From contig JAYUUO010000051.1 in assembly GCA_043754515.1 (NCBI GenBank), forward strand, positions 1 to 53,487: 53,487 bases of DNA. Reading direction: 5' to 3'. Within the stretch, counting starts at the first letter, position 1. The number at the start of each line of letters is the position of its first letter. Below the pieces are notes generated by a model, which searched no databases, was not told where the DNA came from, and saw only the letters and a program-made list of their open reading frames with translations. Below are positions 11,354 through 49,981 of this stretch, one piece after another. Source of the stretch: Armatimonadota bacterium (GTDB taxonomy: Bacteria; Armatimonadota; Armatimonadia; Armatimonadales; Armatimonadaceae). The position numbers and the translations under genes were made by a program.

Positions 11354-12634
11354 CTACGCCGCGACCAGAAACGGCGTGTTCGCGGTCGCCGCTGTCTTGT
11401 TCGCTGCGTCGCGCACGGTCAGATAAAGCCGGTACGCGCCGGGCACGGCCGGTGCCGTGAAGTTCGCGGTGCCGTCATTTGACGCCGCGACGTGAACCGG
11501 TTCGGGTAACTTCTGGCCAGGCTCGTGCCGCGCCTCCTCGATCTTCTCCGGGCGGATGACGTACTCGTAGGTGAGCGGCGTCACGGAGCGGACCACGGCG
11601 GTGACGGTCTGTGGCGAGCTGGGCTTGACTTCTTTTTCGGCGACGCTCGTCTGGAACGCCATGATATCCGGCGCGTTCTGAACACTCCATTTGCCCGTCC
11701 ACAGGAACGAAAGGGCGTCCGTCGCGCCGAGCCGTTCCCCGGTGCCGTGGACGAACAAGCCGTACCACGTCTGCGTCCCCTCGACCTTGTCCCCCCACAC
11801 GAACGCATAGGAGCCGAGGCACGTGGGCTGGCCTTGTATCGAGCGCAGGTAGTTGCCGAGGTAAACGCGGGCTTTCTCCGTGGAACTCAGTTCGAGCGGC
11901 GCGTTCCATTTCGTCTTGCCGACCTCCCAGGTTCCGTTCGGGCCGAACTCGGTCACCATGTAGGGCTTCGTGATGCCCGCCGCTTTCAGCCGGTCTGCGA
12001 GCGACGCCAGCCCGCCGTATGAGTTGATCCCGATTACATCAATATCGGGACACAGCGTCTGAATCGCCTTCGCCTTCGCCGCGTCCGCCCCGATCTCCGC
12101 GATAACAGTCATCGTCGGGTGGTTCGGGTCTTCGCCGCGCGCCATCGCCGCGATCTGTTGCACCGCCTCCCAGACATGGGGGATGTTCCCGTCGCCCTCC
12201 ATCTCGTTCCCGATGCCCCACGCGAGGAGCGCGGGGTGGTTCTTGAACTCGCGGACTACGTTGCGGGCGGTCTCGAACTGTTCGCGCACCATCTTCGGGT
12301 CGTCGTATTTGAAGCCGTGTTCGGCGTGCCCGAGCCAGATGCCGACGGTCACGGTCAGACCGAGCGCGTGCGCGGCGTCCAGGTCACGCCGGGCGGTGTC
12401 CGCGCCCCAGGTGCGGATGGAGTTCCCGCCGAGCGACCTGAGCAGGGCGAGTTGCTCGTGCCCCCCGGCACCGCGCACGAAGTACGGCTTGCCGTCGCGC
12501 GTCATCGTGTAGCCCGCGCCGTCGCGGACAATCCGGGTTATACCGGACGACGGCACGGCTTGCGCGCCCGTGCCTTTTCCCGCCGCGACGGCAAGCGAGA
12601 CGACGCCCGCCTTGATAAGATCTCTACGGTTCAT
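11354..12634 (-). CDS. Tat-exported clan GH-A glycoside hydrolase (GH2 TIM-barrel-like) with a C-terminal Ig-like domain
   Basis: Tat signal MNRRDLIK; GGNSIRTW; WGIGNE (acid/base); VTEFG (nucleophile). Confidence 0.8.
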   Translation of the reverse strand: MNRRDLIKAGVVSLAVAAGKGTGAQAVPSSGITRIVRDGAGYTMTRDGKPYFVRGAGGHEQLALLRSLGGNSIRTWGADTARRDLDAAHALGLTVTVGIWLGHAEHGFKYDDPKMVREQFETARNVVREFKNHPALLAWGIGNEMEGDGNIPHVWEAVQQIAAMARGEDPNHPTMTVIAEIGADAAKAKAIQTLCPDIDVIGINSYGGLASLADRLKAAGITKPYMVTEFGPNGTWEVGKTKWNAPLELSSTEKARVYLGNYLRSIQGQPTCLGSYAFVWGDKVEGTQTWYGLFVHGTGERLGATDALSFLWTGKWSVQNAPDIMAFQTSVAEKEVKPSSPQTVTAVVRSVTPLTYEYVIRPEKIEEARHEPGQKLPEPVHVAASNDGTANFTAPAVPGAYRLYLTVRDAANKTAATANTPFLVAA

Positions 12635-12757
12635 TGTGCTTCTCCATATGGGAACTGGCGGGATGAAGTTGAACGTCACATCCATCCCGCCGACACCTCG
12701 TTAGGCGACCAGTTGACTCCGAATACTACGAAATCACACTGCCCTCCTCAAGAAAAC

Positions 12758-12982
12758 CTACTTGTTTTGAGTACCTTGATAACCCTTGTACGTCATTCCC
12801 TTTGGCACGACACCGGGCGGCGGGGTCGCCGTCACGCCCGTGTCGGATGGGGACGACGCGGCGGCGGCATTAGCGGATGGCGCGGTAACCGGGAGAGGCC
12901 CCGCTTCTTTTTTGCTGTCGCATCCACTGGTACCACCCGCTGTTATCGTCGCCACGGCTATCATGACATAGAAGCGCATCAT
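12758..12982 (-). CDS. Small lipoprotein downstream of DUF1559 copy 3
   Basis: Hydrophobic signal ending TSG-C; GAGGAGG RBS lies within the upstream gene end. Confidence 0.65.
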   Translation of the reverse strand: MMRFYVMIAVATITAGGTSGCDSKKEAGPLPVTAPSANAAAASSPSDTGVTATPPPGVVPKGMTYKGYQGTQNK

Positions 12983-12984
12983 AT

Positions 12985-13827
12985 TCAATCCTCCTCATTC
13001 GTGAGGAGCGGCATTATCCCCTTGGCGTTCTTCTGAGCGAGAGTTTCGAGTCGGTACCACTTGACGTGCCCGTCTACGAAGGTTGTATTCAGCCCGCCGT
13101 TGTGTCGCGCGATTACTTCCCCCAACTGTTGCGGCTTTGTTTCCGTGACTACTCGCGCGTAGGGATTGTTTTTGTTGTCCCAGGCGAACTCACCGATAAT
13201 GGGCCAGTAGTACGACGTGAATTGGGATAAACCTTGCGCCTTCCAGTCGGCAAAATGCACCGTACCGGCGGGGACGCGGACATCACTTAGCGTGATCGGT
13301 TGCGGGTTAGCCCAGTTCCCGATCCCGTATGCCGGCGCGGTCACCCCATCCGTGTGGTCATAATATGTGTTGTTCATGCCATAAGATCCGGGGTTCGTAC
13401 AGCTATTGAACTTGTTCGCCGCGTGATTGGGGTCCCCGGGAGGGGGGGTCCGGTGGAAAGTCGAGTCGTAAGGGCTTCCTCCGAGTTGTGCGTCCTCCGG
13501 GCAGTTGAAAATCTGGTCGTTTTTGGTGAAAATCCAGAGTAGATCCTGCCACCGCTGATCGCCCGGATGGCCGTTGCCCCATCCCGAGTAGCCGATCCAT
13601 GAGGGGACGAGGGTTTCGTCATAGTCCTGCGTGTACATCATCGCGGCGATGCCGATCTGCTTCATATTCGATAGGCACGCGGCCTGTCGGGCCTTGGCGC
13701 GTGCCTGGGCAAAGACAGGAAACAAGATTGCCGCCAGAATGGCGATTATCGCTATCACGACTAGCAACTCGATCAGTGTAAATCCGGTCTTTTTGCGTCC
13801 GGCTGTAGAAACAGTAGTGACTGTCAT
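12985..13827 (-). CDS. Prepilin-type N-methylation / DUF1559 protein (copy 3)
   Basis: [34 protein letters not shown]. Confidence 0.9.
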
Positions 13828-13906
13828 AGATTTGGTTTCTTTCTAAACGATTCCCGACATCGGGAGGACTATGCCGCTTTCAGGAACACGGCGGGAAATC
13901 GCACTG

Positions 13907-14956
13907 CTACGCGGTGTCTCCTTCGAGAAGATATACAGGGAGCGTTGTAACCGGGGACACCGGCTCGCGCTCCTCCGGCGCGGTAAAACGCGCTTCGATC
14001 TGATCAGCGAGTAAAGTCATCGCCAACTCGCCGATGTTGTTCCAGTTCGCGCCCGCCGTTACGAGACGGCGGGGCGTCAGGTTCGGGTCAAGTAACCCGT
14101 CGAATCCGACAACGGCTAGGCCGCCGGGCACCCGTAATCCCGCCTCCCCGCAACGCCGAATCAGGTCGTAAGCCGCCAGGTCGTTCCAGCAAAGAACGGC
14201 GGTTGGCGGCTCCTCCACTGCGCGGATGCGTGATAGCGCGGGCGATGTATCTTCAATCTCGATAGCGAATGTCGGTGCCTTGTCGCCCGCGTCCCGCGCC
14301 CGCATCTCATCCAGGAACACGCGTACGCGGCGTTCCACGGACGCGAACGGGGTGCGAGGGTGTACATAGGCCATGTGTCGGTGCCCCTTCTCCCACAGGT
14401 GCGCGACCAAGGCGCGGGTGCCCGCTTCATCGTCACAAACCACGGACGGGATGCCGGGCAGCGCGTCCGCGATAGCGACCACCGGGAGTGTTCGGTTCTC
14501 CGCGAGCCGCGCCGCAAGTGGGTCGCCCGCGTGCGTGTGGAGGAACAGGCCGTCCACGCGCCCGTCAACAAGTTCGGCGTATATATCGTCCGTGGACGCG
14601 CCCCGGAAAACGCCGTGCAGGAGGACGTCCATCCGCAGTCTACTCGCCGCCTGTTGGAGACTGCCGATTATCGCCGCGAGAAAGGCGTTGCGGGCGTCGA
14701 GGTAGCCGTAGCCCGTGTAAAACCCCACGATGTTGGTCCGGCGGCGGCGCAACGACCGCGCGACGGCGTTCGGGCGGTACTCCATCGCACGCGCGGCTTC
14801 CATGACGCGGGCGCGGGTCTCTTCGGCGACACGGTGGCCCGCCGCGCCGGTGAGGATGCGCGAAACAGTCGGCTGTGACAGCCCGAGGGCGTCGCCGATG
14901 TCCTTAGCCGTTACAGCGCTATCTTTACGTTCGCCGCGTCGCATTCCGTTGTTCAT
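13907..14956 (-). CDS. LacI family transcriptional regulator
   Basis: HTH TAKDIGDALGLSQPTVSRIL, hinge YRPNAVARSL, VVGFD. Confidence 0.93.
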   Translation of the reverse strand: MNNGMRRGERKDSAVTAKDIGDALGLSQPTVSRILTGAAGHRVAEETRARVMEAARAMEYRPNAVARSLRRRRTNIVGFYTGYGYLDARNAFLAAIIGSLQQAASRLRMDVLLHGVFRGASTDDIYAELVDGRVDGLFLHTHAGDPLAARLAENRTLPVVAIADALPGIPSVVCDDEAGTRALVAHLWEKGHRHMAYVHPRTPFASVERRVRVFLDEMRARDAGDKAPTFAIEIEDTSPALSRIRAVEEPPTAVLCWNDLAAYDLIRRCGEAGLRVPGGLAVVGFDGLLDPNLTPRRLVTAGANWNNIGELAMTLLADQIEARFTAPEEREPVSPVTTLPVYLLEGDTA

Positions 14957-14990
14957 CTTTTTTTACTCTAACGGGCTACGCAAAAGGAAT

Positions 14991-15008
14991 TGCGTATACG
15001 TATGCGCA
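14991..15008. promoter_or_regulatory. LacI-type operator palindrome
   Basis: TGCGTATACGTATGCGCA with central CG, 35 bp upstream of the LacI start. Confidence 0.7.
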
Positions 15009-15107
15009 GATTGTATACCAAGGAACGCACGCTGTCAAGGTGGGGATACTGCCACTGCGGCGGTAGCGCGACCGTTTACACGCCGCTCCACGCGGGAAAA
15101 ACGATAC

Positions 15108-16196
15108 GTGAACCACAAAGTAACATCTACGAGCGAGCATGATATTCCCAACCGGGTCGCGGCGAAAACTGCCGAGCTGTGCTATGTATCGGACGACACG
15201 TCAGGCATCCGCCGCGAAGGGGACAAAGAAAACGGGTTCCGCTACGTCGCCCCGGACGGCTCCGAAGTGACGGATGAGGCGACGCTGGAGCGGATACGGA
15301 AGATCGCGTTCCCACCCGCCTACACAGAAACATGGCTCTGCCCGCGCTCTAACGGCCACCTTCAAGCGACAGGGCGCGATGCGAAGGGGCGTAAGCAGTA
15401 TCGCTACCACGCAAGGTGGCGCGAAACGCGCGACGCGAGCAAGTATGACCACATGATGGCGTTCGGTGACGCCTTGCCGGGTATCCGCGCCCGCGTCGCC
15501 ACTGACCTTGCGCGGCGCGGTCTGCCCCGCGAAAAGGTGCTGGCGACCGTGGTGTACCTGCTAGAAACTACCCGCATCCGTGTTGGCAACGAGGAGTACG
15601 CGCAGACCAATCATCACTACGGTTTGACCACGCTCCGACACCAGCACGTCTCGGTACACGGCGAGACGTTGAAGTTCTCGTTCGTCGGGAAGGTGGGCGT
15701 CCGGCACCGGCTGGAGATCAAGAGCCGCCGGCTCGCTCGCATCGTGCGAAGCGTGCGCGACCTGCCGGGACAGGAGCTCTTCCAGTATATAGATGCCCAC
15801 ACCGGCGAAATCAGGCCGATCCACTCCGACGACGTGAACGAGTACCTGCGCGCGATCACGGGCGAACCGTTCACCGCGAAAGACTTCCGGACATGGGCGG
15901 GAACCATGCTGTGCGCGATGGAACTTGCCGCGTTCGAGACGGTGTCCACGCACGAGGCGGTTCAGGAGAACGTGATCAGGGCGATCAACAAGGTCGCGGC
16001 GCATCTCGGCAACACACCGTCGGTCTGCCGGAAGTCCTACATCCACCCGGCGATACTGGACGCATATATGGGGCCGGGGTTGCCGGACACGCTTAAACCG
16101 GGGCTGTCCGCGGTTGCCGAAGTGCCGTCCGGGGTGCTACTGCCGGAGGAACGGGCGGTGTTGCAATACCTGCGGGCGCAGTCCGTTTCTCAGTAG
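15108..16196 (+). CDS. Bacterial DNA topoisomerase IB
   Basis: HLQATGRDAKGRKQYRYH, IRVGNEEY, FVGK, AKDFRTW, HLGNTPSVCRKSYIHP (catalytic Tyr). Start placed at GTG 15108. Confidence 0.93.
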   Translation: MNHKVTSTSEHDIPNRVAAKTAELCYVSDDTSGIRREGDKENGFRYVAPDGSEVTDEATLERIRKIAFPPAYTETWLCPRSNGHLQATGRDAKGRKQYRYHARWRETRDASKYDHMMAFGDALPGIRARVATDLARRGLPREKVLATVVYLLETTRIRVGNEEYAQTNHHYGLTTLRHQHVSVHGETLKFSFVGKVGVRHRLEIKSRRLARIVRSVRDLPGQELFQYIDAHTGEIRPIHSDDVNEYLRAITGEPFTAKDFRTWAGTMLCAMELAAFETVSTHEAVQENVIRAINKVAAHLGNTPSVCRKSYIHPAILDAYMGPGLPDTLKPGLSAVAEVPSGVLLPEERAVLQYLRAQSVSQ

Positions 16197-16656: not shown

Positions 16657-17565
16657 CTACTTGTAGCCGGGGCAACCCCAAGACTGATCATAGAGCCAGT
16701 CAATCGGCCCGTTATCGTACGACTTGATCATGCCAAGGAACAGCACGTTCTTGCAGTAGTTCATCGAGCCTTTCGTCATAGACTTGGCGTGGCCGTCGGC
16801 GAACAGCATGTTGGCCGACTTGGTGTGACGGTAGCGGGGCATCAACGTGTAGAACACCTGGTTAGAGTCGGATCCGGGAACCAGATCCTTATCGAACTGG
16901 GCACCGCCGTTCACGCCGGTGAACTGCGGGGGCCAACCGCCGGGCATGAGCGGGCCACCGCCCTGCACCCACCAGTCCTCGGTCATGCCGCGGACATCGG
17001 AGACGTTGTTGTCGTCGCTACCCATTTCGGTGACCAGAATTGTGTCCGAGACGCGCGGCAGGTTTGACAAAGTAACCGCAGGCCACTCAGTCGTTTTGTT
17101 CGTGGTGAACGGGTCGTGGAAGATGGCGCTGTGCGCCCCATAGGTGTACTTCCCGTCGGCGAAACTCGGACAACTGAATACGCCACCGCTGACGCTTTTG
17201 ACCGCGCCATCACCCGCCGCGTTGTTGCTGACAGTGCCAGGGTTGCCGTTCTTGATGTAGGGAGTCAGGACGACGCGCCAGTCGGACGTCGCGCCGGTGC
17301 TGTCTACGAACTTGGAGAGGGGATACGTCTCCTCGAAGTCTTGGACATACATCATGGAAGCGGTGCCGATCTGCTTCATGTTGGAGATGCAGGATATCTG
17401 CCGCGCCTTTTCCCGAGCCTGTGCGAACACGGGGAACAGTATCGCGGCGAGGATCGCGATAATGGCGATAACAACAAGCAACTCGATCAGTGTAAAGGCG
17501 GAGCGTTTGACGCGGGTGAAAGCGTTGCGCGCGGCACGCGTCAGGGTGGTTGTATTGGTCTTCAT
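16657..17565 (-). CDS. Prepilin-type N-methylation / DUF1559 protein (copy 4)
   Basis: [38 protein letters not shown]. Confidence 0.9.
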
Positions 17566-17834
17566 TCGTTGTAGGTACTTTCCTTGGTTGTCCGGTCCCT
17601 CCGTGGGACCGTCTACGATACTTCGCGCTATCGGGTGCCGGCTTACATAATCAGCTACATGTCACTGCCGACGTCATGCCCGCGTGTTGCTTTGAGAACC
17701 GCCGCGCGGCACGCCCTTCCATGGACGACTCCGCTGATCTCCCCAAACTCTTGCCGGTATGGGGGCGCGTTCTTCACCCCGAGCACACGTCAAACAATCC
17801 GCGGTGAACCGGCTAATGCCTAATCGCGATACGT

Positions 17835-17852
17835 TGCGCATTCGTATGCGCA
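17835..17852. promoter_or_regulatory. Second copy of the LacI-type operator
   Basis: TGCGCATTCGTATGCGCA, 16/18 identical to 14991-15008; about 270 bp upstream of DUF1559 copy 4. Confidence 0.65.
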
Positions 17853-20764: not shown

Positions 20765-20800
20765 TTTACCAGAACGTAAAAACATTTACCGATGAGTAAG
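20765..20800. promoter_or_regulatory. Tandem TTTAC-N6-GTAA palindromes, probable TetR operators
   Basis: tttaccagaacgtaaa (20765) and tttaccgatgagtaag (20785); the second overlaps the TetR ATG. Confidence 0.55.
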
Positions 20801-21433
20801 AATCCCCATCAGCCATGCTTCCCCACCGTCGCTTCCCTGCGCGAGCGTCAGCATGTCACCCGCGAGGATGCCATCCTGACCGTCGCGCTAATGATGATGG
20901 ACGAGATCGGCTACGGCACTATGACGATGGACGATCTGGCGGCGCGGGCGGGGATCTCGAAACCGACGCTCTACACCTACTTCGCCTCGAAGGAGGCCAT
21001 CGCGGTTCGCGCCGTGGTTCGCATGATGGAGCGCGGACGTGCTTTCGTGGACGCGCAACCGCCCACCACCCCCGCGTTCGAGCGGATCGAGGCGACGGTT
21101 GATTACCTGTGCGACGGGAAGTTCGTTCACCGCATGGCGTATCTGGGCACTGGGCATGACGCGCTCGGCCCGACCATACGGGCGCACCCCGAGTACCGCT
21201 CCGAGTACGGGAAACTCGCGGCACGAATCACCGCCCTGTTTGAGGAGGCGCGTGACGAAGGAACATTAAAACCGGGATTGGCTACCCGCGTCGCGGTACA
21301 GGCACTGTTCAGTCTGTTGCGCGACGCCGAATATACCGACCTGATCGCGCGGGGCGAGTGCGACGCGCGAGCCGTGGCGTATACGCTGAGGACAATTTTT
21401 CTGGACGGTTTGCGGACAAAGGATCGAAAGTGA
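20792..21433 (+). CDS. TetR/AcrR family regulator
   Basis: HTH TMDDLAARAGISKPTLYTYFASKE. Confidence 0.93.
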   Translation: MSKNPHQPCFPTVASLRERQHVTREDAILTVALMMMDEIGYGTMTMDDLAARAGISKPTLYTYFASKEAIAVRAVVRMMERGRAFVDAQPPTTPAFERIEATVDYLCDGKFVHRMAYLGTGHDALGPTIRAHPEYRSEYGKLAARITALFEEARDEGTLKPGLATRVAVQALFSLLRDAEYTDLIARGECDARAVAYTLRTIFLDGLRTKDRK

Positions 21434-23013: not shown

Positions 23014-23032
23014 GGACACGAGGAACACGAAC

Positions 23033-24778: not shown

Positions 24779-24784
24779 CAAACC

Positions 24785-32015: not shown

Positions 32016-32489
32016 AAAGGGGGCGGGGAAGGGGGCCGACGATGAATCGTCCCCGTCTGCGGCTCGCAAACAGGAATCCTTCGGCACAGGTTTTTTCGCG
32101 GCGAAAAAGACCGGGTAGACGCTTCGGGTCGCGGAGGTTCATTCCAAAAACCAGCATTTTACGGGTGCCCAACGCGTTGGCTGCGGTAACCCTCGCCACG
32201 GGAGGCCAGGGATTCGCCGCCGATGTTCCCGGAGTAGGCGTCGCCCCCCACCCGTCGCCGCTCCCCGAATTCACCCTGCTCGACGAGGGCGGCATGATGC
32301 ACAACCCGCCCCCCAAAAACGGTCGCGGCGTGGCGGCGTGAGTTGGGCGGCCCCGTCGCTGATCCTGAACGGCGCGCGTCCCTGCATCTGCTCGCCGACG
32401 AGTGCGACCTCGTGCCCCGCGAGCAGCCCGAGGACGCCCTCGCCCACTTCGCGGCGGCACGCGCCCTCGCCCCCGCTCACTCGCCCCTC

Positions 32490-33237
32490 CCCGGCTATCG
32501 CCTGCGCCATGAGCAGGTAGTTTGTTCAGCGAGTAGCGGCGCAACGAGTGGAGCGTGATGGCGTCGGTGAGTTCGGCGAATGCGGTGACCCGGTGCAGTA
32601 TCTTGAGGAAACGCCCTTCGTCTATTTTCGCCCCGGTGTCGCTAATAAAAAGCCAGCCATCGTCGTCCGCTTTCGGAACGTTCCGCATGACCCGCGCCCG
32701 GACCCGGAGCCAGACTTCCATCTGCGCCGCCCATTCCGGCGACACGGGTAGTGCCCGCGGCTCCTTGCCCTTGCTCTCGCGGATCACGATCTGCCGTTCT
32801 TTGGCGCGGTAGTCGCCGACTTTCAGCGACAGCATTTCGCCGATGCGGGCGGCGGTGTCGAGCAACCCCAGGACTACCGCCATGTTCCGGTCGCGGTAGA
32901 AGATGCGGGCGGCGTGGGGCATGAAATGAATGGCCGGATTAGGCTCCGGGTCCCAGTAGCCCCGCACGCCGGCGAGCAGGGCGACAATCTCGTCGTCGGT
33001 AGGCATGTGCTTCGGGGGGCGGGGCGCGTTGTGGATCTCGTACTCGGCGAGCGGGGAGCGGTCGAGCAGGTCGTTCTTCGCGCACCAGGCGTAGAACACT
33101 TTGGCGCACATGCCGTCGTGCCGGAGCGTCATGCGGGACTTGCCTTCCCGCGAGCGGAAGGCGACGTAGCGGTCTAAATGCCGCTTGCCGAAGTTATCGA
33201 AGCGAACCTCGTTATCCTTCGCCAACCTCGCGAGCAT
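32490..33237 (-). pseudogene. Truncated tyrosine recombinase/integrase
   Basis: LLDTAARIGEML, SKGKEPR, HSLRR; frameshift after LNKL into LLMAQAIAG; second His and catalytic Tyr missing; N-terminus looks truncated. Confidence 0.8.
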
Positions 33238-39378: not shown

Positions 39379-40146
39379 TCACTGCTTCACCACTATGGGC
39401 TTTGGTAGCGCGGCTTGAATCGCCCGAAACCATGCATCGCCCACGCGGGCATAGCCGTCTTTTTCCCCGGCAACTCCGTAGCCCGTCGGGTGAACCCCGT
39501 CGCCAATATAATCGTTCGTCGCCGGAAGCGCGGCGTGAATATCCACAAGATGAACCCGTGCATCGCGCTTTCGCAGAGCGGCGACCATGGTACAAACCTT
39601 TGCGTTATAAATATCTACGTCGCCGCTATGCTTGCTGTAGCCGTCAAAAGCGTTCGGCATGATCGTCGGTATCGTGCCGACGAAAATATGTGCTTTCGGC
39701 TTCACACGGCGTACCTGCTGCAAAAGCACACCGAGGCGATCCGCCGCCCCCGCGACATACCCCTGCCCGACATCATTGGTTCCAAGCATGACCAGTATGA
39801 TATCCGCTTGGAACCGGTCTAACGTCCCGGTGCTTGTGGCGGTCAATTTCGCCGCGACATCGGCGATTTTGCAACCGGGGTAGCCCTCATGTTCGCCGTC
39901 CGTGAAACCGCCTTCCGGGTTCGCACCAAACTGCGACCCGACAAAATCCGTGCGATAACCGCCCTTGTCGAGATTCGTTTTCAGCCGCCGCCGCCCCCAC
40001 GGAGCCGCCGTTATCGAATCGCCAACGCATAGTATGGTAAGCGTCTTGACGGAAGCCGTTGACTTTTTTTGTGCCGAAGCCGTGGTCGTCATACCGGCAA
40101 GGAAAGCCACTCCCCCGATTATCATACGTCGCCGCGTTGTTGTCAT
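39379..40146 (-). CDS. Tat-exported SGNH/GDSL esterase (CE3-like)
   Basis: RRR signal, GDSIT, FVGS, HEGYPG, GTND, DGVHP. Confidence 0.88.
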   Translation of the reverse strand: MTTTRRRMIIGGVAFLAGMTTTASAQKKSTASVKTLTILCVGDSITAAPWGRRRLKTNLDKGGYRTDFVGSQFGANPEGGFTDGEHEGYPGCKIADVAAKLTATSTGTLDRFQADIILVMLGTNDVGQGYVAGAADRLGVLLQQVRRVKPKAHIFVGTIPTIMPNAFDGYSKHSGDVDIYNAKVCTMVAALRKRDARVHLVDIHAALPATNDYIGDGVHPTGYGVAGEKDGYARVGDAWFRAIQAALPKPIVVKQ

Positions 40147-40232
40147 AGTATTTTAAGATTCTGCGCCTGTAACTTCCCGGCAAGTTCGCGGCGACATAAT
40201 CGTCGCCACGAACTTGTTTAGGGTGCAAGGGA

Positions 40233-42908
40233 TCAGCGCGAGAACAGTTCAATCTCCGACAGTTGTGTCATGTTGGAACCGCCGTTCGCCGTGATGGATA
40301 AGACATAGTTCTTATACACGATTGTGTTGCTGAAGGTGAATGTCTTCTTCTGAAACCGGCTGGTGAAGGTCTGACCGGACTGCGAATCGAGGGTTGTCCA
40401 GTTCGTTCCATCGTTCGAGCCTTGCAGTAGCCATGTGCGCGGATCACGTTCGGGCGAGTCATTCGCGGAGGTGATTGTATACTGTTCCACTGCGTACCCG
40501 GCGTTTGCAAACTGATACACGACCCAACAGGAGTTGGTGGCGTTTGGTACTCCCGTGTTATCCAACCATTTCGTGTTTGTGTTATCGTCGAACGCCTTGG
40601 GACCATCCTCGAAGGAATTGATACTTCCTCGCACGTATATGTTGCCGCCACCGGGCGTTGTCGTGCGGTCAATCAGCGCACCGGTCGGCGGTGGCGTGAC
40701 CGTGCCGCCCGCGAACGGTGATAGTTGCGAACCGGGAATCACTTCGCTTGGTGTTACTGTACCTTGCCCCGGTTTCGCCCAACCAACCGCCATGTTATCG
40801 CCGCCGCCGCCCTCTTTGTGTAGGACTTCGACATAATACCTTTGACCGGCGACGAGGGGAATAACGACTGATTTTTGCGTGGCATACTTGTTCCACTCGC
40901 GTGAGTTCGTCCAGTCGGGAACATTGGCGATTCGTACCTTGCTTCCCGGCTGATCGTTTGTCGAGAGCCACAACTCGCAGTTATCGTCTCCGGCAACCCA
41001 GAATGTATAGTTCCCGGTCGTGGGAGCGGTGATATAGCCGCGAACCCGTGTCCCGTAGTTGTCCCCGGCATTGGAAGCGATTTCCAAACTGGTGAGGGTG
41101 TCGGATGTTTGCGGAGTGGTCGTCACAGGAATCTGCGATACCTGCGTTCCCGGAACATTTGTCCACACTTCGCGGCTAATCGCGCCGGAGCCGGTTGCCG
41201 GAGGCGTTGTACCGCCTGCCCATTCGTAGACACCGATGTCGGGTGCACTACCGGAAAACCCGGAGAGAGTGATTCCCGGCGCGATATTCACCGTTCCCGC
41301 GTTGACTACCAAAGACGATGCGGAAGCGGGGGCGTAAAACGGATTGGGCAGTGCGCCGCTCAGGTTCAACCCGGAAGCCGACGCCGAGGCGAGGCTTGCC
41401 GTATTGCCGGGCAGATTATTCGCAAAAACCACATTCGCGGAAGCGTTCGGTGCCGGGTTTATGTCGAAGCCGACCGTGTAGTGCCAAACGCTGTTCGTGA
41501 AATTCGAGTTCCTAATAGCGGCGGTGGGATAGCCCCAGTTCACGATGCGGTCGTTGTTCAAAAACACGTTGTTCTTTGCGTTCAGGTTATTGATGAAGCC
41601 GCCGCCGTCCAGCATATAGCCTTCCGTGAAGCCCCGGAACACGTTATTGTAGATCGCCCAGTTGTTCGCGGTGGTGTTGGTGCTGTTACGAAAAGCCACC
41701 CCGTGCGATGGGTACGGGGTGTTCGGAAACATCCGGCTAAACACGTTGTTGAACACGCGCACGTTGTTCACATCGCTCCGCGTGTCTCCCGCGCTGACCG
41801 CGCCGGGGTCGGTAAGAAGGCCGATCTGGGTGTTCTCGAAGTAGTTGTTGTAAACGTCGCTATCGTTGAACATCAACTCAATACCGGACCCCGACACATT
41901 GCTGGGGAAGTACACATAGTTGTCGTGAAACTTGAGGATCTTATCGTACCCGTTCAGCGACGTAGACCCGACGAACGAAGTCCACTGGGAAAGAACGTTG
42001 TTATCCACTTCGTTCCCGCCGGAGGCATAAAACAGACAGATAGTGTCCTGGGTGGGCTGTTGCTTCCACCCCGTGAACGGCGACACGAAACTGGGGGCGT
42101 ACATCGTGTTGTGGTGGATGCGCGTGCTGCCGACGTAGTTGAGGCGCACGGAGTCGCCCCAGGGCGAGGGGTTGGAGGCACTGGCACCCGGAGCGTCGGA
42201 GTTGTCCATCAGGTTGTGATGGATGGACGAGTCCAGCCACCCGTCCCCGTTTATACAGGGACCTTTCGTCTTAAAAAAGAACGAGTCTTTAACCTCCAGA
42301 TTAGTAACGTCTCCGGCGCGCGTGCCGTCCCCGGTCACCGCCAGCCGCAGGGCGTTCCCCGACAGGTTCCGGAAAGTACAGTTAGCCACCGTGAAGTAGC
42401 TGATCTTGAGGGTACTGAGACCGCCGGTGCCGACATAGTTGTCGCCATCTATGGTCAGGTTGCGGATGCCCCCGGGACTCGTTTCGGCACTGCCCGTCGA
42501 AACGTTGATGCCGAACCCGGGGAAGTCATCGTTCTGATGCGTCAGAATCACCGTCCTTGTGTTATCCGTCGCGGTGTTCTCGCCTTCAATGAAGATGCCA
42601 GGATTGATCCAGACCGCAGCGCGAGTGCCGAAGTTGTTAAGGGACGCGTCAAGGACGTAGGTCCCCGCTTTGAGGTGGATAACGTGTCCCTGTCGCGCGG
42701 GCACTGCCTGCCCCGCCTTGTACAGGGTTTTCCACGGGTTGCTCAAAGAGCCATCGCCCGTGGCGTCGTTCCCGATAGGGTCGAGGTAGTAGGTCGCGGC
42801 ATCCGCGCGGACGGTGACCCCCACAAGTATCGCGCCGGAGGCGATGAGCCCCGCCCACAACGATAAACGCGACATCGCAGTCGCTCGGTTCTTCGTAGAT
42901 CGTAACAT
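40233..42908 (-). CDS. Secreted right-handed beta-helix protein with PA14 and discoidin/CBM32-like domains
   Basis: TYY.DP.GND..GDGS..NPWKT start; Asn-rich beta-helix repeats; PA14 GYITAPTTGNYTFWVAGDD; AFDDNTNTKW...SAND...LSEIEL. Confidence 0.8.
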   Translation of the reverse strand: MLRSTKNRATAMSRLSLWAGLIASGAILVGVTVRADAATYYLDPIGNDATGDGSLSNPWKTLYKAGQAVPARQGHVIHLKAGTYVLDASLNNFGTRAAVWINPGIFIEGENTATDNTRTVILTHQNDDFPGFGINVSTGSAETSPGGIRNLTIDGDNYVGTGGLSTLKISYFTVANCTFRNLSGNALRLAVTGDGTRAGDVTNLEVKDSFFFKTKGPCINGDGWLDSSIHHNLMDNSDAPGASASNPSPWGDSVRLNYVGSTRIHHNTMYAPSFVSPFTGWKQQPTQDTICLFYASGGNEVDNNVLSQWTSFVGSTSLNGYDKILKFHDNYVYFPSNVSGSGIELMFNDSDVYNNYFENTQIGLLTDPGAVSAGDTRSDVNNVRVFNNVFSRMFPNTPYPSHGVAFRNSTNTTANNWAIYNNVFRGFTEGYMLDGGGFINNLNAKNNVFLNNDRIVNWGYPTAAIRNSNFTNSVWHYTVGFDINPAPNASANVVFANNLPGNTASLASASASGLNLSGALPNPFYAPASASSLVVNAGTVNIAPGITLSGFSGSAPDIGVYEWAGGTTPPATGSGAISREVWTNVPGTQVSQIPVTTTPQTSDTLTSLEIASNAGDNYGTRVRGYITAPTTGNYTFWVAGDDNCELWLSTNDQPGSKVRIANVPDWTNSREWNKYATQKSVVIPLVAGQRYYVEVLHKEGGGGDNMAVGWAKPGQGTVTPSEVIPGSQLSPFAGGTVTPPPTGALIDRTTTPGGGNIYVRGSINSFEDGPKAFDDNTNTKWLDNTGVPNATNSCWVVYQFANAGYAVEQYTITSANDSPERDPRTWLLQGSNDGTNWTTLDSQSGQTFTSRFQKKTFTFSNTIVYKNYVLSITANGGSNMTQLSEIELFSR

Positions 42909-43155: not shown

Positions 43156-43464
43156 TTAGGGCTTCGTGGGCCTCGACTCCAACTGTTTTTTTATCGCCGC
43201 TTTTTGCTCGGCGGTCATGCTCGGGTTGTCGTCAATAGAGGACATCGCTCTCGCTTTGTTTTCTACGGCGGTCGGCCGCGGTACGCTGGAAACATCCGTC
43301 TCGGTCGCGACGGCCCCTTTCGGCGACTCGGCGGATGTTTCCGTCCTCGCGGTGCATCCCGGCGCGAGAATCACCCCCGCCAGTAGGGTCGCTGTGGCGA
43401 CCCTGCTGGCGGTAGTCACGCGCCATGAAATCACACTGCGGTATTTCACGTCGGTAAGGTTCAT
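43156..43464 (-). CDS. Small lipoprotein downstream of DUF1559 copy 5
   Basis: LLAGVILAPG-C lipobox; C-terminal NPSMTAEQKAAIKKQL. Start uncertain (43464 or 43482). Confidence 0.7.
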   Translation of the reverse strand: MNLTDVKYRSVISWRVTTASRVATATLLAGVILAPGCTARTETSAESPKGAVATETDVSSVPRPTAVENKARAMSSIDDNPSMTAEQKAAIKKQLESRPTKP

Positions 43465-43474: not shown

Positions 43475-44380
43475 TTAATCACCCGTTCCGAGCGTCCAAT
43501 AACCGCCGTCAGGCCATCGGGAGTAAATGCCTCTTTTGCCCATCGTGCCTTCGGGGCGTAGCCACTTCACGTGCCCGTCGGCGAACGCGTAGTTCCATCC
43601 CCCGTTATGGGCGGGCTTTACCGATTTGTAGCAAGCATCGAACTGCGTCTGCGACCCGCCCCAGAAAATACTGTCGCATGCGTCGCCGCTGTTAGGGTGT
43701 TGGTTGTATTGACCGAGCAACCCATAGTTGACGCCCTTCTGCGGCTCCATAACTATGTTGGTATCGTTGTGTGCTTCCACGATCATGAACAGTTCGCTCG
43801 GTGCCGGGATGGATGCTATTGTTCGCGGTTCGGCCAGGAAGATGGGCAGGAACCCTTTCGCCGGGTCGTTCGGGTCATTGTAAGCGGGACCCCAGGCCGT
43901 CGTGCCAGAAAGGGCGTACGAGCGCGTCGCTATCGGCCCCGTTAGAGTGATCATTCCTTCCCCTGCGGCACCGGCGTCGACCACCGTCTTGCGTTCTATC
44001 GTGTCGCTCGGACAGGCATAAACTCCGGCGGCCCCTTTGCCCATATTCGCGGTGAGGGTGCCGCCCTTCTGCCCCATGCTCGTGTAGGGGTTGATCATGG
44101 TGTCCCACGAGATCCTGTTGTCTATCTGGCCCATCACGTAGCACTCGTCGTAGTCCTGCGCGTACGCCATCATGCCCAGCCCGAGCTGCTTCATATTAGA
44201 CAGGCACGCGGCCGACCGCGCCTTCTCCCTGGCCTGGGCGAAGACGGGAAATAGGATCGCGGCGAGGATGGCGATGATCGCGATTACCACGAGCAACTCG
44301 ATTAGTGTGAACGCCCCAGATTTGCGCCCGGTGTAACCGGAGTTCTTCCGAACGATAGAACGATTGGTGTTTTCAGTCAT
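43475..44380 (-). CDS. Prepilin-type N-methylation / DUF1559 protein (copy 5)
   Basis: [36 protein letters not shown]. Confidence 0.9.
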
Positions 44381-44516: not shown

Positions 44517-45665
44517 TCACTCCAGCAGGAGCGATACGACATCCGGCATGCGCACCGCCCAACCCGCTTCCGAGGTGATACGCGGTAACAATACCATAGG
44601 GATCCGTCGCAGGATCGGCGTCGGATCTTTGATTTTCCCGAGCCAACGCTCCCAGAGAATGTCCGCCGCCACCGCCCCGACCTTGTCGAGCGGGCGATGT
44701 AGCGAAGTCAGTATCTGTCCCTTCGCGTTAGGCAGGTTGTCATAGCCGACCAGTGCGGGCCATCGCTCGACCGGCACGCCCAGTTCGTGAAGCATTCTTA
44801 CGTAAGCGATAGCGGCGTCGTCATTGGCGGCGACAACCGCCGTGATGTCGGGGCGCATCGCCATGTGCCGCGCCGCGCTCGCCGCCGCGTTCGTTAACGA
44901 CCAGAGGCAGTCCAACTCCTCCGGTGGTGCCTGCGCCTCGTCCGGGTGGAAAGCAAGGCCGTCGGCAGGAAACCCCGCGTCTTCCAGCGCGGATCGCCAT
45001 CCCGCCTCACGACGCTCCGACCAAGCCGTGTGTCCCGGCGCGGGACGACCCGCCGCGTGAACACCCAGAAACGCGATGCGACGGTGCCCCAACCGTAGTA
45101 GGTGTGAGGTGGCCTGTTGCCCGCCGTCCACGTCGTCTACGCCGACACCATCCATGAAATCGGGGTCCTCCATGTATCCGAAATGACCGACACGCGCCAC
45201 TTCGCGTCGCCGAGGCCCCCACGGCAGATCATCCGCTACCCCTTTGGTACAGTCCCAAACCCCCGCGAGAGACGGGAGCGCGTAAACCCGGTTCCGGACA
45301 CGAATCTCATCGAGCGAAAGACTCAAACTCGCCCCGCCCAGAACCGCGATTCGTTGCGCAAACCCGACATCGAGAGGGTCACTTATTCCGTGACTCGCAT
45401 ATGTCACCAACAAAAAAAAGTCGCTCGTCTTCGTCGGCGGCGTGCCGATGAACGTACCCGACCCCGGCACGCTATACAGCAGGCCTTCCTCGACAAGGCG
45501 TTGCACTTCCTGGTGCGCCACCTGATTCGACAAGCCGAACCGGACGGCCAACTCGCGGACCGACGGGACCAACATCCCGGCGCGGAGTATCCCTTTCTTG
45601 TGCGACACCCGGATGTCATTCCGGAGCGCGTCACAGCGTTCTCTCACTTCTTTGCGGGTAGCCAT
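44517..45665 (-). CDS. GntR-HTH / LacI-type sugar-binding regulator (AraR-like architecture)
   Basis: PSVRELA...LVEEGLLYSVPGSGTFI; LGHRRIAF; VGYDN. Confidence 0.9.
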   Translation of the reverse strand: MATRKEVRERCDALRNDIRVSHKKGILRAGMLVPSVRELAVRFGLSNQVAHQEVQRLVEEGLLYSVPGSGTFIGTPPTKTSDFFLLVTYASHGISDPLDVGFAQRIAVLGGASLSLSLDEIRVRNRVYALPSLAGVWDCTKGVADDLPWGPRRREVARVGHFGYMEDPDFMDGVGVDDVDGGQQATSHLLRLGHRRIAFLGVHAAGRPAPGHTAWSERREAGWRSALEDAGFPADGLAFHPDEAQAPPEELDCLWSLTNAAASAARHMAMRPDITAVVAANDDAAIAYVRMLHELGVPVERWPALVGYDNLPNAKGQILTSLHRPLDKVGAVAADILWERWLGKIKDPTPILRRIPMVLLPRITSEAGWAVRMPDVVSLLLE

Positions 45666-45844: not shown

Positions 45845-47893
45845 CTATTCCCCGAATACTATAACGGCGTAGGCATCCACCCGCGGCACGATGACGGATA
45901 CTACCGCGCCCGCGACGGTGAACGATAACGCTTCTCCCGAAAGAGCAACGAACACACGGCCTGTCGGCTCATCGCGACGCAACGCCACCACGACATCGCG
46001 CAAGGGGACCGGTGCATCGAGTATTTCGATATGACACGTCGGGCGGCGTTGCGGGCTGTAGTTGACGATGTAAACGATGTGTCGCCCCGTTTCCGCTTGA
46101 TGCAACACCGTCACCTCCGCCTGCGGGGGCGCGTTGGTTACAAGGATGGGAGACGGGTACAGGGCGGCGAGACACCCCCGCACTATCGAGCGCAATGTCA
46201 GCGCGCCATGGCGTTGGTACGACGCGAAGAACGCCCCATACAGATATATGACGTTGTCGTGCCGCATGATCGCCGGGTAATCACCCGCCGCGTCGTCGCC
46301 CGCGAGCGGCGGCGTAAAGCCGTGCGAGCAGAATTGTTCCGGGGCGCGGTCGAAATAGGTGCCGCGCGCCACGCCTAAAACACGGGTCCCGGCGCGGGGC
46401 GATACGTGGCAGGCGGGTCCTTCGTACAGCGAATACCAGAAGCTCGCCCGCGCCACCGTGCTTTGCAAGGCGGCGTCCGTGACCGTGAAATAGTCCGGGT
46501 TACTCCGCGCCGCGCCGATGTAGTCGAGTCCCATCTCGTCTGCGAGCGCGAAGTTCCCGCCGTCCAGTAACGCCCTGTGCGAAAGAAGGATTTTCCCGCC
46601 GTTTCGCACGTAGCGGCGCAGTCGTGCAACCGTCTCCGGCCCCGAGATCGCGTGGTCGGGTATCACGAGAAGGGCGTACCGGGAGAAATCGTCGCACGTC
46701 CGGTCGGAAACGACGTCGAACTGCGCGTGACACTCCAAAAGCATCCGCGCCGCGCCCTCCACCGCGTCCGACGTTTCCGATACCATGCCCGCCACGGATT
46801 GGTTCGCCTTGTCCGCGTCCGGGCTGAGCAGAAGAAGCGCGACATCCGCGACCGCTTTCGCCCCGATTAGAAACGGCTCCAGTGCCTCGATCTCAGCGAA
46901 CACTTCGCCGATGACCGCGTAGACCGGCCGGCTGAGTCGTCCGGACGGGTGCAACTGATCGCCGATCGACACCGCGCCGCCGTTCGCGAGAATGCCGCCG
47001 CACTCGAAGCGCAGGGCGTCGGGATGCTTCAGACCGCCCCAGTCCGCCCACGAGCGGTGAAACCGCCCGGTCATCCCGAGCATCGGCAGGTCGAAATGCC
47101 GCCCGTAGCGCGACCAGAGCGGATAGAAACCGTATCCCCAGCCCCCGGTCGGGAGTGATTCGATCTCGACCTGCGTATAATACTCGCTTTCATCGGCGAA
47201 ATGCGCCCCCCAACGCGAGTTGAAGAAAATCGAGGCATCCGGCAGGCGGGAGCGGATCAGATCGCTCGCCCTCTTCAAAAATCGCCGCGCCGTGACATTG
47301 TTGTTGCTCTTGCGGTGCGCGGGATTGAGCGGGTCCAAGCCCCCGGCGCGTAACTGCTTCAGGCAAGACGGGCAGACGCAGGCGTCCTCGTGGTACATCA
47401 CGATGTCGTAGAAAAAGCCGTCACACTCGCTACCGTAACGGTCAATGATCTCCTCGGTCTGCGCGAGCAACTCGTCGGCATACGCACCACCGCCCGCCCC
47501 GACGCAAAGCCACGGCCACCCGGCTGCCGTGATATTACCGCCGACAATCCTGCCGTCGAACGTGCGCTGGAACCATTCCGGGTGACGTCTGGCGGCGGAC
47601 ACATTCCACGCCACGGTCAGGTAAATAGGGCAGCGAATCCCGACCCCGTGCATCGCCCCGATCTGCGCGCCGAGCAGATCAAACGTCAATGACGGGTGCA
47701 TCGGCGCGACATGACTGGGGTAGTAGTACATCCCGTGATGGCACATGGCGAACGTCGTCACGGAGCTGACGTGTGCCGCCTGAAGCGTCGCGGCGAACGC
47801 GGCGGCGTCGAATTCCGCGCCGACGCCGGGAATATCTGGGCTGGTGTGAAAATCCAGATGTATCTGGCGCATAGGGAAAAGAGCACTGTCCAT
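45845..47893 (-). CDS. GH151-like alpha-L-fucosidase with beta-galactosidase trimerization domain
   Basis: RQIHLDFHTS, FAMCHHG, DGFFYD, EIESLPTGGWGY, GMTGRFHRSWADWGG, IGDQLHP. Confidence 0.8.
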   Translation of the reverse strand: MDSALFPMRQIHLDFHTSPDIPGVGAEFDAAAFAATLQAAHVSSVTTFAMCHHGMYYYPSHVAPMHPSLTFDLLGAQIGAMHGVGIRCPIYLTVAWNVSAARRHPEWFQRTFDGRIVGGNITAAGWPWLCVGAGGGAYADELLAQTEEIIDRYGSECDGFFYDIVMYHEDACVCPSCLKQLRAGGLDPLNPAHRKSNNNVTARRFLKRASDLIRSRLPDASIFFNSRWGAHFADESEYYTQVEIESLPTGGWGYGFYPLWSRYGRHFDLPMLGMTGRFHRSWADWGGLKHPDALRFECGGILANGGAVSIGDQLHPSGRLSRPVYAVIGEVFAEIEALEPFLIGAKAVADVALLLLSPDADKANQSVAGMVSETSDAVEGAARMLLECHAQFDVVSDRTCDDFSRYALLVIPDHAISGPETVARLRRYVRNGGKILLSHRALLDGGNFALADEMGLDYIGAARSNPDYFTVTDAALQSTVARASFWYSLYEGPACHVSPRAGTRVLGVARGTYFDRAPEQFCSHGFTPPLAGDDAAGDYPAIMRHDNVIYLYGAFFASYQRHGALTLRSIVRGCLAALYPSPILVTNAPPQAEVTVLHQAETGRHIVYIVNYSPQRRPTCHIEILDAPVPLRDVVVALRRDEPTGRVFVALSGEALSFTVAGAVVSVIVPRVDAYAVIVFGE

Positions 47894-47932
47894 GAGAAAT
47901 GATCCTTACGGAGGCGGAGTTAGAATGTCACT

Positions 47933-49981
47933 TTACGTAGGCAGGAACGGCGGGCAGGCGATCCCGGTCAGCAGTCCGAACGCGGCGGCGAGTCCGGCGA
48001 AAACCGCCTCGCCGACGATCAGGCCCAAAAAGAAAGGCGTGGCTTGGCCGTAGCCTTTCGCCCCGCCCCACCGCAGAACAAGCGATTTGGAGAGCCAGCC
48101 TAGAAACACGGAAAAGAAAAAGCGGTCCATGGCATAGGTCCCAGCGAGCGCGAGTCCGATGGGGGCGAGCGGCCAGCCTAAGAAGTTAGAGCGCAACACG
48201 CCGAGTAGCACGGTTAAGCCCGCGCCGACACCCGCCCAGCCGAGAACCCCCGGTGCGCCGCCCCTGCCCCCGCCGGGGGCGAGTGCCTGCCCGTAACTCG
48301 CCGCGGTACGCAAACCGTAACCGCTGCCGAGGCCGCTCCACGAGTCCAGACTGACTTCGCCATACTTGTAGGCGAGCGACAGGTTTGCCGCGCCCCCGAC
48401 CAGATAGCCCACGAGCATCGCGAGGGCCGCCCCGATGGCGAAGTAGACGGGGAGGATGCGGTGCCGCCCGTCGCCCTCTCCCGCGGAGTTCGCCAGCGAG
48501 AACCCGTTCGTGAGCGCGGGGATCGGATGCTCGCGCACGTCGCCCGCCAGCACGAAATTCGCGAGATGCGCCGTCCCGACCGCGTCGTGAGGAATGCCCA
48601 ATCCGCCCAGTGCCCGCTGGGCGTCCAGCAGACCGAACGGGATCATGAGGAACAGCATGCCGGACTCCGCCATGATGCGTGACAGCACGAAAACGACCAC
48701 GGCGATGGAGACCGTGATGGCTACCCCGCCGCCGAGCGGCGGAAGTCCCGCCGCCCATAGCCAAGCGACCAGCCCGAAAAATCCCGACCCGGTGAGCAGA
48801 AACGCGGCTCTGTACGGCATCACCTCGCCACTTTCGGTGTCGTCCTCCGCAGCGAGGGGTGTCCGATGCCGGGTTCCCGCCGCTTTACCCGCGAACGCGG
48901 TGAGCCACGCGGCGCGCAGATGATGACGCGCTCCCCAAAGCAGTGTCGCCGTCCACGCGAAAAAGACCCCGATACCCACCGCGCCCTCCTGGTTCACGGG
49001 TCCCGGCATGATCGGTTCGAAACCTACGGCGACCCGTAACACGCGAAACAGATGAAACAGCAGATACATAAACCACAGCGAGAACGCGATGTCCGACGGC
49101 AACAAGAATACCGCGCCGATAGCGGCGAAGAAAATCTCCAGCGAACCGATCCCTACCGCGTTCCACGGCGGACCGGGCGGACTGCCGATCGCGATCACCG
49201 TGGGGGCGTCGGGGAGTGAAGGGTATAAGACATGCGCCGTACCGAAGGCGTGATGTACCAGAACCACGGCGACGCCGAAGGAGAGGGCGGCACGGGCTCT
49301 CCCTTTTTTATCCCCCGTCATCGGCTCCATATGCTCGGCGAGCACCATCGGGATCCGCGCGAGCGGGTACGAAAGTCGCTCAGCTTCCTGCCACCGTTTT
49401 CGCAGCAGGGACGACATGCCGATTCCGAACGCCGCGAGGCATCCGAAGCCCGAACCCCACCCCAGGAGCACGGGAAGCCACGCGAGCCACGGCACGGAAC
49501 CGTCCGCGGAACCGTTCCAGTAACGCAGCATGTTGGGATCGCTCGGGTCACGCGACAGAAGGAACCACGAGGGGGCACCGGCGAAAATAGCCAATGCGGA
49601 GCCGTCCCCCAGGCCGGCGAAATAAGCGGGCGCGGCGGCGGCGGGCGCGAGCATACGCCACAGACCGGAGCCGGCAAGACACGCCCCCGCCGTCCACATC
49701 GCCCATATAAGGAGCAGTTCGACGCTCGTCAGCGCAAGCCGCGGCGTGAACCGCCGCAAAAGAGGGTTGACCAGTCGGCCCAGAACAAGCCAGAGGAATA
49801 AGGCCCCGACGGGGAGGTGGTTGCCGTAAAGGAATGTGCCTTTCAGATAAAAGTTATTATAGGGAGTTACCGCGCAGAGTAGGGCGACGCCGATAAGCCC
49901 GATAGCGAGGGGTTTCACAGCACTACGGAACGGGGTGCGATCCCCTCGATCGTGAGCGGAGAATGTCTTCTGATTCATCAT
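47933..49981 (-). CDS. DUF6785/DUF6784-type polytopic membrane protein (putative transporter)
   Basis: Many TM helices; PW.AW..., ERLSYPL, F..WPL.PIG, RWGG..GY...PFFLGLIVGE. Confidence 0.7.
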   Translation of the reverse strand: MMNQKTFSAHDRGDRTPFRSAVKPLAIGLIGVALLCAVTPYNNFYLKGTFLYGNHLPVGALFLWLVLGRLVNPLLRRFTPRLALTSVELLLIWAMWTAGACLAGSGLWRMLAPAAAAPAYFAGLGDGSALAIFAGAPSWFLLSRDPSDPNMLRYWNGSADGSVPWLAWLPVLLGWGSGFGCLAAFGIGMSSLLRKRWQEAERLSYPLARIPMVLAEHMEPMTGDKKGRARAALSFGVAVVLVHHAFGTAHVLYPSLPDAPTVIAIGSPPGPPWNAVGIGSLEIFFAAIGAVFLLPSDIAFSLWFMYLLFHLFRVLRVAVGFEPIMPGPVNQEGAVGIGVFFAWTATLLWGARHHLRAAWLTAFAGKAAGTRHRTPLAAEDDTESGEVMPYRAAFLLTGSGFFGLVAWLWAAGLPPLGGGVAITVSIAVVVFVLSRIMAESGMLFLMIPFGLLDAQRALGGLGIPHDAVGTAHLANFVLAGDVREHPIPALTNGFSLANSAGEGDGRHRILPVYFAIGAALAMLVGYLVGGAANLSLAYKYGEVSLDSWSGLGSGYGLRTAASYGQALAPGGGRGGAPGVLGWAGVGAGLTVLLGVLRSNFLGWPLAPIGLALAGTYAMDRFFFSVFLGWLSKSLVLRWGGAKGYGQATPFFLGLIVGEAVFAGLAAAFGLLTGIACPPFLPT

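Follow-up and report, generated by a model that had tools for sequence, protein, structure and literature searches.

DUF1559-led units in the window and in the genome

The stretch analyzed here (the window) is the 53,487-nucleotide contig JAYUUO010000051.1 of an Armatimonadota bacterium (assembly GCA_043754515.1), one contig of a 5.13 Mb genome that is 92.7% complete. Most named relatives of its proteins are labelled Armatimonadota, and some carry other labels. Five intact genes of the DUF1559 family lie in it, and all five products scored above cut-off against PF07596, PF07963, TIGR02532 and the H-X9-DG profile TIGR04294 (Table 1). As the original prediction had stated, they have a common N-terminus and the H-X9-DG motif with differing middles: residues 16-41 are identical, overall identity is 38-39% and the middle regions are divergent. 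The predicted succession of a prepilin-type gene and a short lipoprotein gene was found three times, each time with a lipobox in the second product; two of the pairs directly follow a sugar regulator (LacI and GntR/LacI), and a LacI-type operator stands upstream of the remaining pair. The claim that the pairs precede secreted carbohydrate-active enzymes (CAZymes) held for unit 1, where the next gene encodes a glycoside hydrolase (GH) similar over its full length to solved GH158 enzymes and, by its family, presumably a beta-1,3-glucanase. It held only in part for unit 3, as the product of 40233-42860 has no recognised catalytic domain (its N-terminal part gave no PDB or NCBIfam match) and is a probable CAZyme. 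No TonB-dependent receptor, SusD or sugar ATP-binding cassette (ABC) gene was found among the scanned open reading frames (ORFs) of the window, in agreement with the earlier claim, and Rfam and tRNA scans of the window returned no element. The two plus-strand DUF1559 copies have no lipoprotein, regulator or CAZyme gene among their neighbors.

Unit 1 consists of a LacI-type repressor, DUF1559-1, a lipoprotein and GH158, while DUF1559-2 stands in a unit of its own without an enzyme. The palindrome in the LacI promoter matches the one ahead of unit 2, each lying 3' of a promoter of the TTGACA-17 bp type; no further site within 2 mismatches was found in the genome, and shuffles of the window gave 0/100. 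The repressor carries a helix-turn-helix and a sensor domain, and the CG-centred palindrome is present at its own and at the target promoter, so that both features of a LacI/GalR local regulon were found. Because this private operator is common to units 1 and 2, the two likely make up a single small regulon in which the DUF1559 genes differ. Unit 1 recurs across six genera: the subfamily of DUF1559-1 is carried by seven genomes, with LacI upstream in 7/7, the lipoprotein in the 6/6 that had room and GH158 next in 4/6, and the operator lies upstream in the six genomes with an orthologous LacI (59-75% identical). A generic scan for CG palindromes upstream of all DUF1559 copies was uninformative. 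Units 1 and 2 are split by an oppositely oriented topoisomerase IB gene (15108-16196), and a similar ORF is found upstream of LacI in genome G270 (L284). DUF1559-2 is separated from operator 2 by a 270-nt leader (17566-17834), which had no Rfam match.

The predicted model of DUF1559-1 (predicted local distance difference test score 91) comprises a 51-residue helix (18-68), a small sheet that holds the H-X9-DG motif, with strands at 190-195 and 245-259, and long loops. Pilins took ranks 1-14 in a fold search with this model, though as weak matches (best Z 5.0, root-mean-square deviation 3.3, 118 aligned; ComP 5hz7, Z 3.9), and Foldseek against PDB returned no match at E 0.001. No solute-binding-protein fold was among the VIA-align matches listed. 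The predicted fold looks pilin-like, with a constant stem and variable, subfamily-specific loops; residues in the loops that are specific to the subfamily include W156, Y198, W208, E213 and N218, which are candidate binding-site residues. The class III signal peptide typical of type IV pilins, with Phe+1 and Glu+5, is present. Across the genome, a class III signal with Glu+5 was found in 55/55 DUF1559 copies read for the motif, with Gly (29), Ala (25) or Val (1) at position -1, and Ala-1 is also used by the short pilins of the host. For the middle region of DUF1559-3, the 70 further genomes searched in the order gave no match at E 1e-10. A metagenome scan with a DUF1559 middle region as query gave zero matches; a motif scan gave 109 loci, three of them members of the unit-1 subfamily, one of which scored the same as L281 and was counted once.

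Our own gene caller, which missed or truncated some copies, gave 62 DUF1559 genes in the genome, and six-frame rescue raised the number to 81 loci with fragments included. LacI lies no more than 700 nt upstream of 18/62 called DUF1559 genes and of 2/3278 other genes. Seen from the regulators, 21 of the 28 PF13377 genes have a tandem DUF1559 gene no more than 1 kb away, another has a divergent one, and two lie at contig ends. Likewise, DUF1559 adjoins 12/16, 8/14, 7/12 and 6/15 LacI genes in four genomes of four families (33/57 in total). Pfam scans covered 249 neighbor genes and 123 control genes, with nine loci dropped for want of room. A same-strand GH within three genes was present for 8/20 LacI-linked and 2/52 unlinked DUF1559 copies (Fisher p 3e-4; control rate 4 GH in 123 genes), and looser carbohydrate labels raised this to 13/20 and 4/52. 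In this genome, the neighborhood statistics proposed earlier yielded an enrichment of LacI and of lipoproteins, whereas CAZymes were enriched around LacI-linked copies only; a general DUF1559-CAZyme link was rejected, and the CAZyme link is a property of the LacI-linked quarter, not of the whole family. The operon order is LacI-type repressor, DUF1559, an optional small lipoprotein, then glycan enzymes or an ABC transporter, one unit leading into a sugar ABC transporter. Export signals were read for the neighbors with five genes left out, and in some units the GH43, GH30 and GH38 enzymes have no visible signal peptide.

The original prediction also saw the pilin and lipoprotein as a paired recognition unit, and this was not supported. 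The mature lipoproteins are low-complexity chains of 30-68 residues, 64-82% P/A/S/G/T/Q/K/E with at most 15% bulky hydrophobics, and had no NCBIfam match in the window. A lipobox ORF lies 3' of 18/62 called DUF1559 genes and 53/3278 other genes of the genome, and after 11/18 LacI-linked and 7/38 unlinked copies with room; in the four other genomes, about a third of LacI-linked copies (11/33, one probably spurious) precede a small lipoprotein or membrane peptide. None follows the vitamin-controlled copies of this genome described below. Similar lipoproteins follow 10/14 relatives of DUF1559-2, and short motifs travel with the respective DUF1559 subgroup. Complex prediction for residues 38-280 of DUF1559-1 with lipoprotein 1 scored 0.01 (mark 0.32), which gives no verdict either way. 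An analogue of SusD was rejected, because a chain so short, polar and low in complexity would be unable to fold as a binder. The lipoprotein appears to be an optional accessory inherited with its pilin rather than the binder, probably a disordered tether or chaperone.

Some recurring downstream proteins, for which a PEP-CTERM identity was rejected, form a membrane-anchored, CBM (carbohydrate-binding module)-like family of eight. Each begins with a conserved ILKP-type sequence and continues with a single membrane helix and a linker to the CBM-like domain (PDB 7t7y, E 1.4e-11; CBM30-like atlas matches at 0.92). They lie at C98:30160-30882, C112:22616-23290, C157:22983-23669, C194:27782-28387 and C232:9926-10606 and on C35, C103 and C105; for five of them, the nearest LacI-linked DUF1559 gene is less than 1.4 kb away. 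They are possible glycan-binding accessories. Split or frameshifted DUF1559 genes, through decay or assembly error, were seen at C19:9403-10015, C30:13210-14214, C48:5491-6417, C118:6446-7283, C150:86527-87409, C197:4262-5079 and C254:23018-23934.

Table 1. Genes and sites of the window on which the analysis draws.
Feature	Position	Strand	Basis
DUF1559 copy	4186-5196	+	PF07596, N_methyl, H-X9-DG
DUF1559 copy	5975-6913	+	PF07596, N_methyl, H-X9-DG
GH158, presumed beta-1,3-glucanase, twin-arginine-like signal (unit 1)	11354-12634	-	PDB 9oro E 1.7e-83, 6pal E 4e-56
Small low-complexity lipoprotein 1, 74 residues	12758-12982	-	lipobox; short Pro-rich motif common with the G351 orthologue
DUF1559 pilin-like protein 1, beta-glucan-linked subfamily	12985-13827	-	profile matches, predicted model, orthologues
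LacI-family repressor, putative operator owner	13907-14956	-	PF00356 and PF13377
Operator 1, 18-bp palindrome	14991-15008	-	just downstream of sigma70-type promoter 15038-15010
Small lipoprotein 2, 90 residues	16265-16537	-	lipobox; predicted short helix motif at the C-terminus
DUF1559 pilin-like protein 2, under operator 2, own unit without enzyme	16657-17565	-	profile matches
Operator 2, palindrome	17835-17852	-	downstream of sigma70-type promoter 17882-17854
GH2-family hydrolase, signal peptide (unit 3)	33299-37063	-	family profile match
GH95-like hydrolase (unit 3)	37095-39371	-	PF22124 E 6.8e-41
GDSL esterase, twin-arginine-like signal (unit 3)	39379-40146	-	family profile match
Secreted protein, PA14 and F5/8 modules	40233-42860	-	profile matches
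Small lipoprotein 3	43156-43464	-	lipobox; short helix motif same as lipoprotein 2
DUF1559 pilin-like protein 3	43475-44380	-	profile matches
GntR-HTH (helix-turn-helix) / LacI-sensor regulator	44517-45665	-	Pfam
Putative glycoside hydrolase (GHL6) without visible signal peptide	45845-47893	-	PF14871 E 3.5e-28
DUF6785/DUF6784 multi-pass membrane protein, candidate inner-membrane importer	47933-49981	-	Pfam

Vitamin riboswitches ahead of DUF1559 genes

The neighbor genes of two copies unlinked to LacI gave the first hint of vitamins. The only thiamine pyrophosphate (TPP) riboswitch match of the genome precedes a DUF1559 gene followed by thiamine pyrophosphokinase (C309:2114-3970, L040), and the only cobalamin match (adenosylcobalamin class, 53 bits, cut-off 50) precedes a DUF1559 gene followed by a BtuF-type protein (C71:3553-5408, L044). 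Among the 46 DUF1559 loci scanned for riboswitches, a set that leaves out some 20 loci, most of them linked to LacI, these two elements were the only ones found.

We extended the analysis to 60 other genomes of the phylum, which gave 81 cobalamin and 56 TPP matches; 50 of each class were examined (30 best and 20 hand-picked per class). DUF1559 was the first gene behind the cobalamin switch in 35 of the 49 loci with room, spread over 17 families; among the first genes of the remaining 14 were five TonB receptors, one ExbB and two BtuF-type proteins. A TonB-barrel match was absent from 15 of the 35 genomes with a B12-switch DUF1559. Behind the TPP switch, DUF1559 came first in 21/50 loci (one further weak case uncounted), and 27/28 of the other loci lead to thiamine synthesis genes. 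In a tree built by a quick method, from which nine loci without a complete protein were excluded, the B12 copies form one group (33 rows, Shimodaira-Hasegawa-like approximate likelihood ratio test 94) and the TPP copies fall into two, all separate from the sugar copies.

Vitamin genes under feedback repression serve synthesis or uptake, and the riboswitch data suggest an import role for DUF1559. The pilin of a vitamin unit stands in the place of a receptor and has no enzyme to secrete. The simplest common role would be ligand-specific capture for import. The family is not confined to glycan loci, with members at B12 and thiamine loci as well. The earlier proposal of a SusC/D role for these genes is supported in so far as DUF1559 heads sugar-regulated operons, much more often than chance would give, in the position of an uptake gene, but its scope was too narrow.

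Candidate roles of the DUF1559 products

Elsewhere in the genome the pilus kit is complete-looking by gene content, with four PilT genes above cut-off, three strong PilB-type ATPases, five secretins, short pilins and a peptidase A24 (prepilin peptidase) gene beside a PilC-type gene. SusD (PF07980) had 0 matches in the genome at its present completeness. Two TonB barrels were found, neither within a LacI unit, together with six SBP_bac_1 matches; TonB receptors number 0-6 per genome in 61 genomes of the phylum.

On balance, and with modest confidence, we favor a role in which a DUF1559 product would bind one specific nutrient and feed an import that replaces the TonB-dependent receptor, probably acting as a minor subunit of a retractile type IV pilus. 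Under this proposal the inducing sugar would lift LacI repression, prepilin peptidase would mature the DUF1559 protein and the protein would join the pilus. Its loops would bind the ligand, beta-1,3-glucan for unit 1 and B12 or thiamine for the riboswitch-controlled copies, and on retraction the ligand would reach the secretin or pass through it, and so come to enzymes and binding proteins in the periplasm and to transporters in the inner membrane. Regulator and loops would be swapped per ligand while the capture role stays common. We infer pilus display, with the secretin as gate, from the invariant stem and the machinery genes.

Several observations weigh against this proposal. Pilus display, ligand binding and assembly are predictions, and no pilus is known to import vitamins. 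The pilin fold match is weak, its best Z of 5.0 lying under the tool's mark of 8 and the best Foldseek E being 0.37. The B12 and TPP groups of the tree point to one or two origins each, long kept, and not to dozens of independent events. The substrate assignment of unit 1 is not strict, since the unit-1 subfamily of G261 has a different LacI and an esterase in place of GH158, and the G361 locus has no same-strand GH. Operator 2 was not found upstream of 14 relatives of DUF1559-2 and looks recently acquired. Downstream of seven of the 20 LacI-linked copies, no carbohydrate gene was recognised. Of the 81 copies, roughly three in four lack a LacI, and CAZymes are at background level around these (4/52 counting both strands, p 0.74). 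Among 78 DUF1559 loci sampled broadly across phyla, tandem LacI was found at 1/19 Armatimonadota-titled loci with room (4/19 in Lentisphaerae) and a lipobox ORF at 1/26 Armatimonadota-titled loci. Finally, at C150:54304-59257 (L035) a DUF1559 gene lies two genes upstream of a same-strand TonB-dependent barrel and ExbB, from which it follows that both systems can coexist.

The same uptake role could be played without a filament, the stem anchoring the head in the inner membrane or in a short periplasmic pseudopilus, the ligand entering via porins and the head concentrating it for ABC, OPT-like or other transporters. We regard this, the main rival, as rather unlikely, though it has several observations in its favor. 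Directly after some copies come genes for an ABC binding protein with permeases, after others genes for BtuF-type proteins, and three of the six DUF6785/DUF6784 genes of the genome lie near DUF1559 loci (OPT/peptide-transporter look-alikes of the window protein at 0.78-0.80 are a lead only). The large, loop-rich head of the predicted model may not pack into a filament, and the accessible text of PMC8567305 places planctomycete DUF1559 proteins in both detergent-soluble and SDS (sodium dodecyl sulfate)-soluble fractions. Nevertheless, the stem, the cleavage site and Glu+5 are near-invariant, like those of the short pilins of the host, which exceeds the needs of a simple anchor. B12 is moreover too large for porins, and with no TonB barrel in 15 of the 35 genomes with a B12 copy, an outer-membrane step seems to need filling.

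Sugar regulation would fit equally well with substrate-induced adhesins, minor pilins that attach the cell to particles of the inducing glycan without transport, and lectin pilins of streptococci do bind glycans. The accessible text of PMC13174399 also describes pilins that bind glycans and the attachment of pili to them. Adhesion would leave unexplained why copies under B12 and thiamine switches occupy the receptor slot by BtuF-type and thiamine kinase genes, which makes it improbable. Cargo-selective pseudopilins of type II secretion, exporting the neighboring enzymes, would be in keeping with export signals on GH158 and several neighbors, with the five secretins and with a verrucomicrobial alginate-cluster pseudopilin with 67 homologues, interpreted as secretory in the accessible part of PMC13274419. 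Yet window unit 2, the ABC unit and the vitamin units hold no enzyme, GH43, GH30 and GH38 lack a visible signal, and the five window copies reach 27-41 bits against the GspG profile TIGR01710, far under its cut-off of 88.85, and secretion is accordingly very improbable. Least probable of all, in our judgment, are envelope sensors or selfishly expanding paralogues behind regulated promoters. Many of the 81 loci are fragments or stand without a telling context, which would suit them, as would the recent look of operator 2, but the B12 pairing is kept over 17 families and unit 1 over six genera, and no signalling partner recurs among the neighbor genes of DUF1559.

Other window genes, related systems and significance

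Unit 3 may be acquired DNA: a tyrosine integrase-like ORF (31945-33237) directly follows it and the GC content is low (0.55) at 40001-42000 within it, while no tRNA was found near the integrase-like ORF. Divergent from the DUF1559 pair that starts at 4186, three adjacent genes (1151-3896), read as vWA protein, PP2C-like phosphatase and kinase, presumably resemble a TerY-P-like triad; Pfam gave only a weak APH match. TetR, an outer-membrane efflux protein, HlyD and MFS genes at 20792-26446 make up an ordinary tripartite efflux operon. A 242-residue ORF in low-GC DNA (50098-50826) looks like a truncated hydrolase start and has no family match.

Polysaccharide utilization loci of the SusC/SusD type in Bacteroidota include beta-1,3-glucan loci with GH158. 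The units described here are like them in joining a sugar sensor, a substrate-specific first gene, a lipoprotein and hydrolases in one regulated unit, in many paralogous units; regulator and CAZymes are co-located. They differ in that the units have no SusC-type receptor and the genome no SusD, so that the SusC/SusD pair is absent, the first gene is pilin-like, and the tiny lipoprotein is no folded glycan binder. Vitamin uptake operons (cobalamin riboswitch, btuB, btuFCD; TPP switch and thiamine uptake genes) are established. The vitamin loci of DUF1559 have the same switch, first-gene position and BtuF-type or thiamine kinase gene next, and some relatives have a TonB receptor in that place; a pilin-like protein of about 250-300 residues stands in the position of the 22-strand barrel. 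Neisseria ComP, which serves DNA uptake, and the modular pilins of Streptococcus sanguinis are ligand-binding minor type IV pilins. DUF1559 proteins resemble them in class III signal peptide, predicted long first helix and variable head, and, as proposed here, in ligand capture by a retractile pilus, but are unlike them in the dozens of dispersed paralogues under their own nutrient regulators, the H-X9-DG motif and the proposed glycan and vitamin ligands.

A type IV-like pilus locus tied to glycan use, MUL2 of Akkermansia, has been described in a lineage without SusC/D (PMC13174399, accessible text); it links a pilus-like system with glycan use in a similar way, but is a single four-gene locus with an archaeal-type pilin. 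In Planctomycetes, the same Pfam family (DUF1559 / SBP_bac_10) has expanded, its genes frequently having neighbors that code for signal-peptide proteins or lipoproteins, and was formerly labelled solute-binding. The accessible portions of PMC8567305, PMC2754498 and PMC4807772 connect it with neither LacI regulators nor CAZymes nor riboswitches. With regard to the SBP_bac_10 label and the two-lobed periplasmic binding fold that goes with it, the predicted DUF1559-1 model shows a single long helix, with loops and a small sheet, and its top fold matches are pilins, albeit weak ones. A literature search of openly accessible text, with most subscription papers and supplements outside it (PMC8567305 and PMC13274419 may bear on the point), found no link between DUF1559 and LacI regulons or riboswitches.

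More broadly, DUF1559 proteins may be interchangeable receptor pilins, each specific to its ligand, with which one retractile pilus and its secretin import many nutrients, glycans, B12 and thiamine among them, and replace the TonB repertoire in Armatimonadota and probably in the PVC (Planctomycetes-Verrucomicrobia-Chlamydiae) phyla; we hold this wider statement tentatively, at a little short of even. DUF1559 is among the largest families without a defined function in several abundant glycan-degrading phyla that are poor in TonB receptors, and it bears on how large nutrients are taken up there. The regulators name a candidate ligand per copy: beta-1,3-glucan, B12 or thiamine. If the proposal is true, it would add a second general way of import across the outer membrane, distinct from SusC/D and TonB, and the diet of an organism could be predicted from the DUF1559 subfamilies in its genome.

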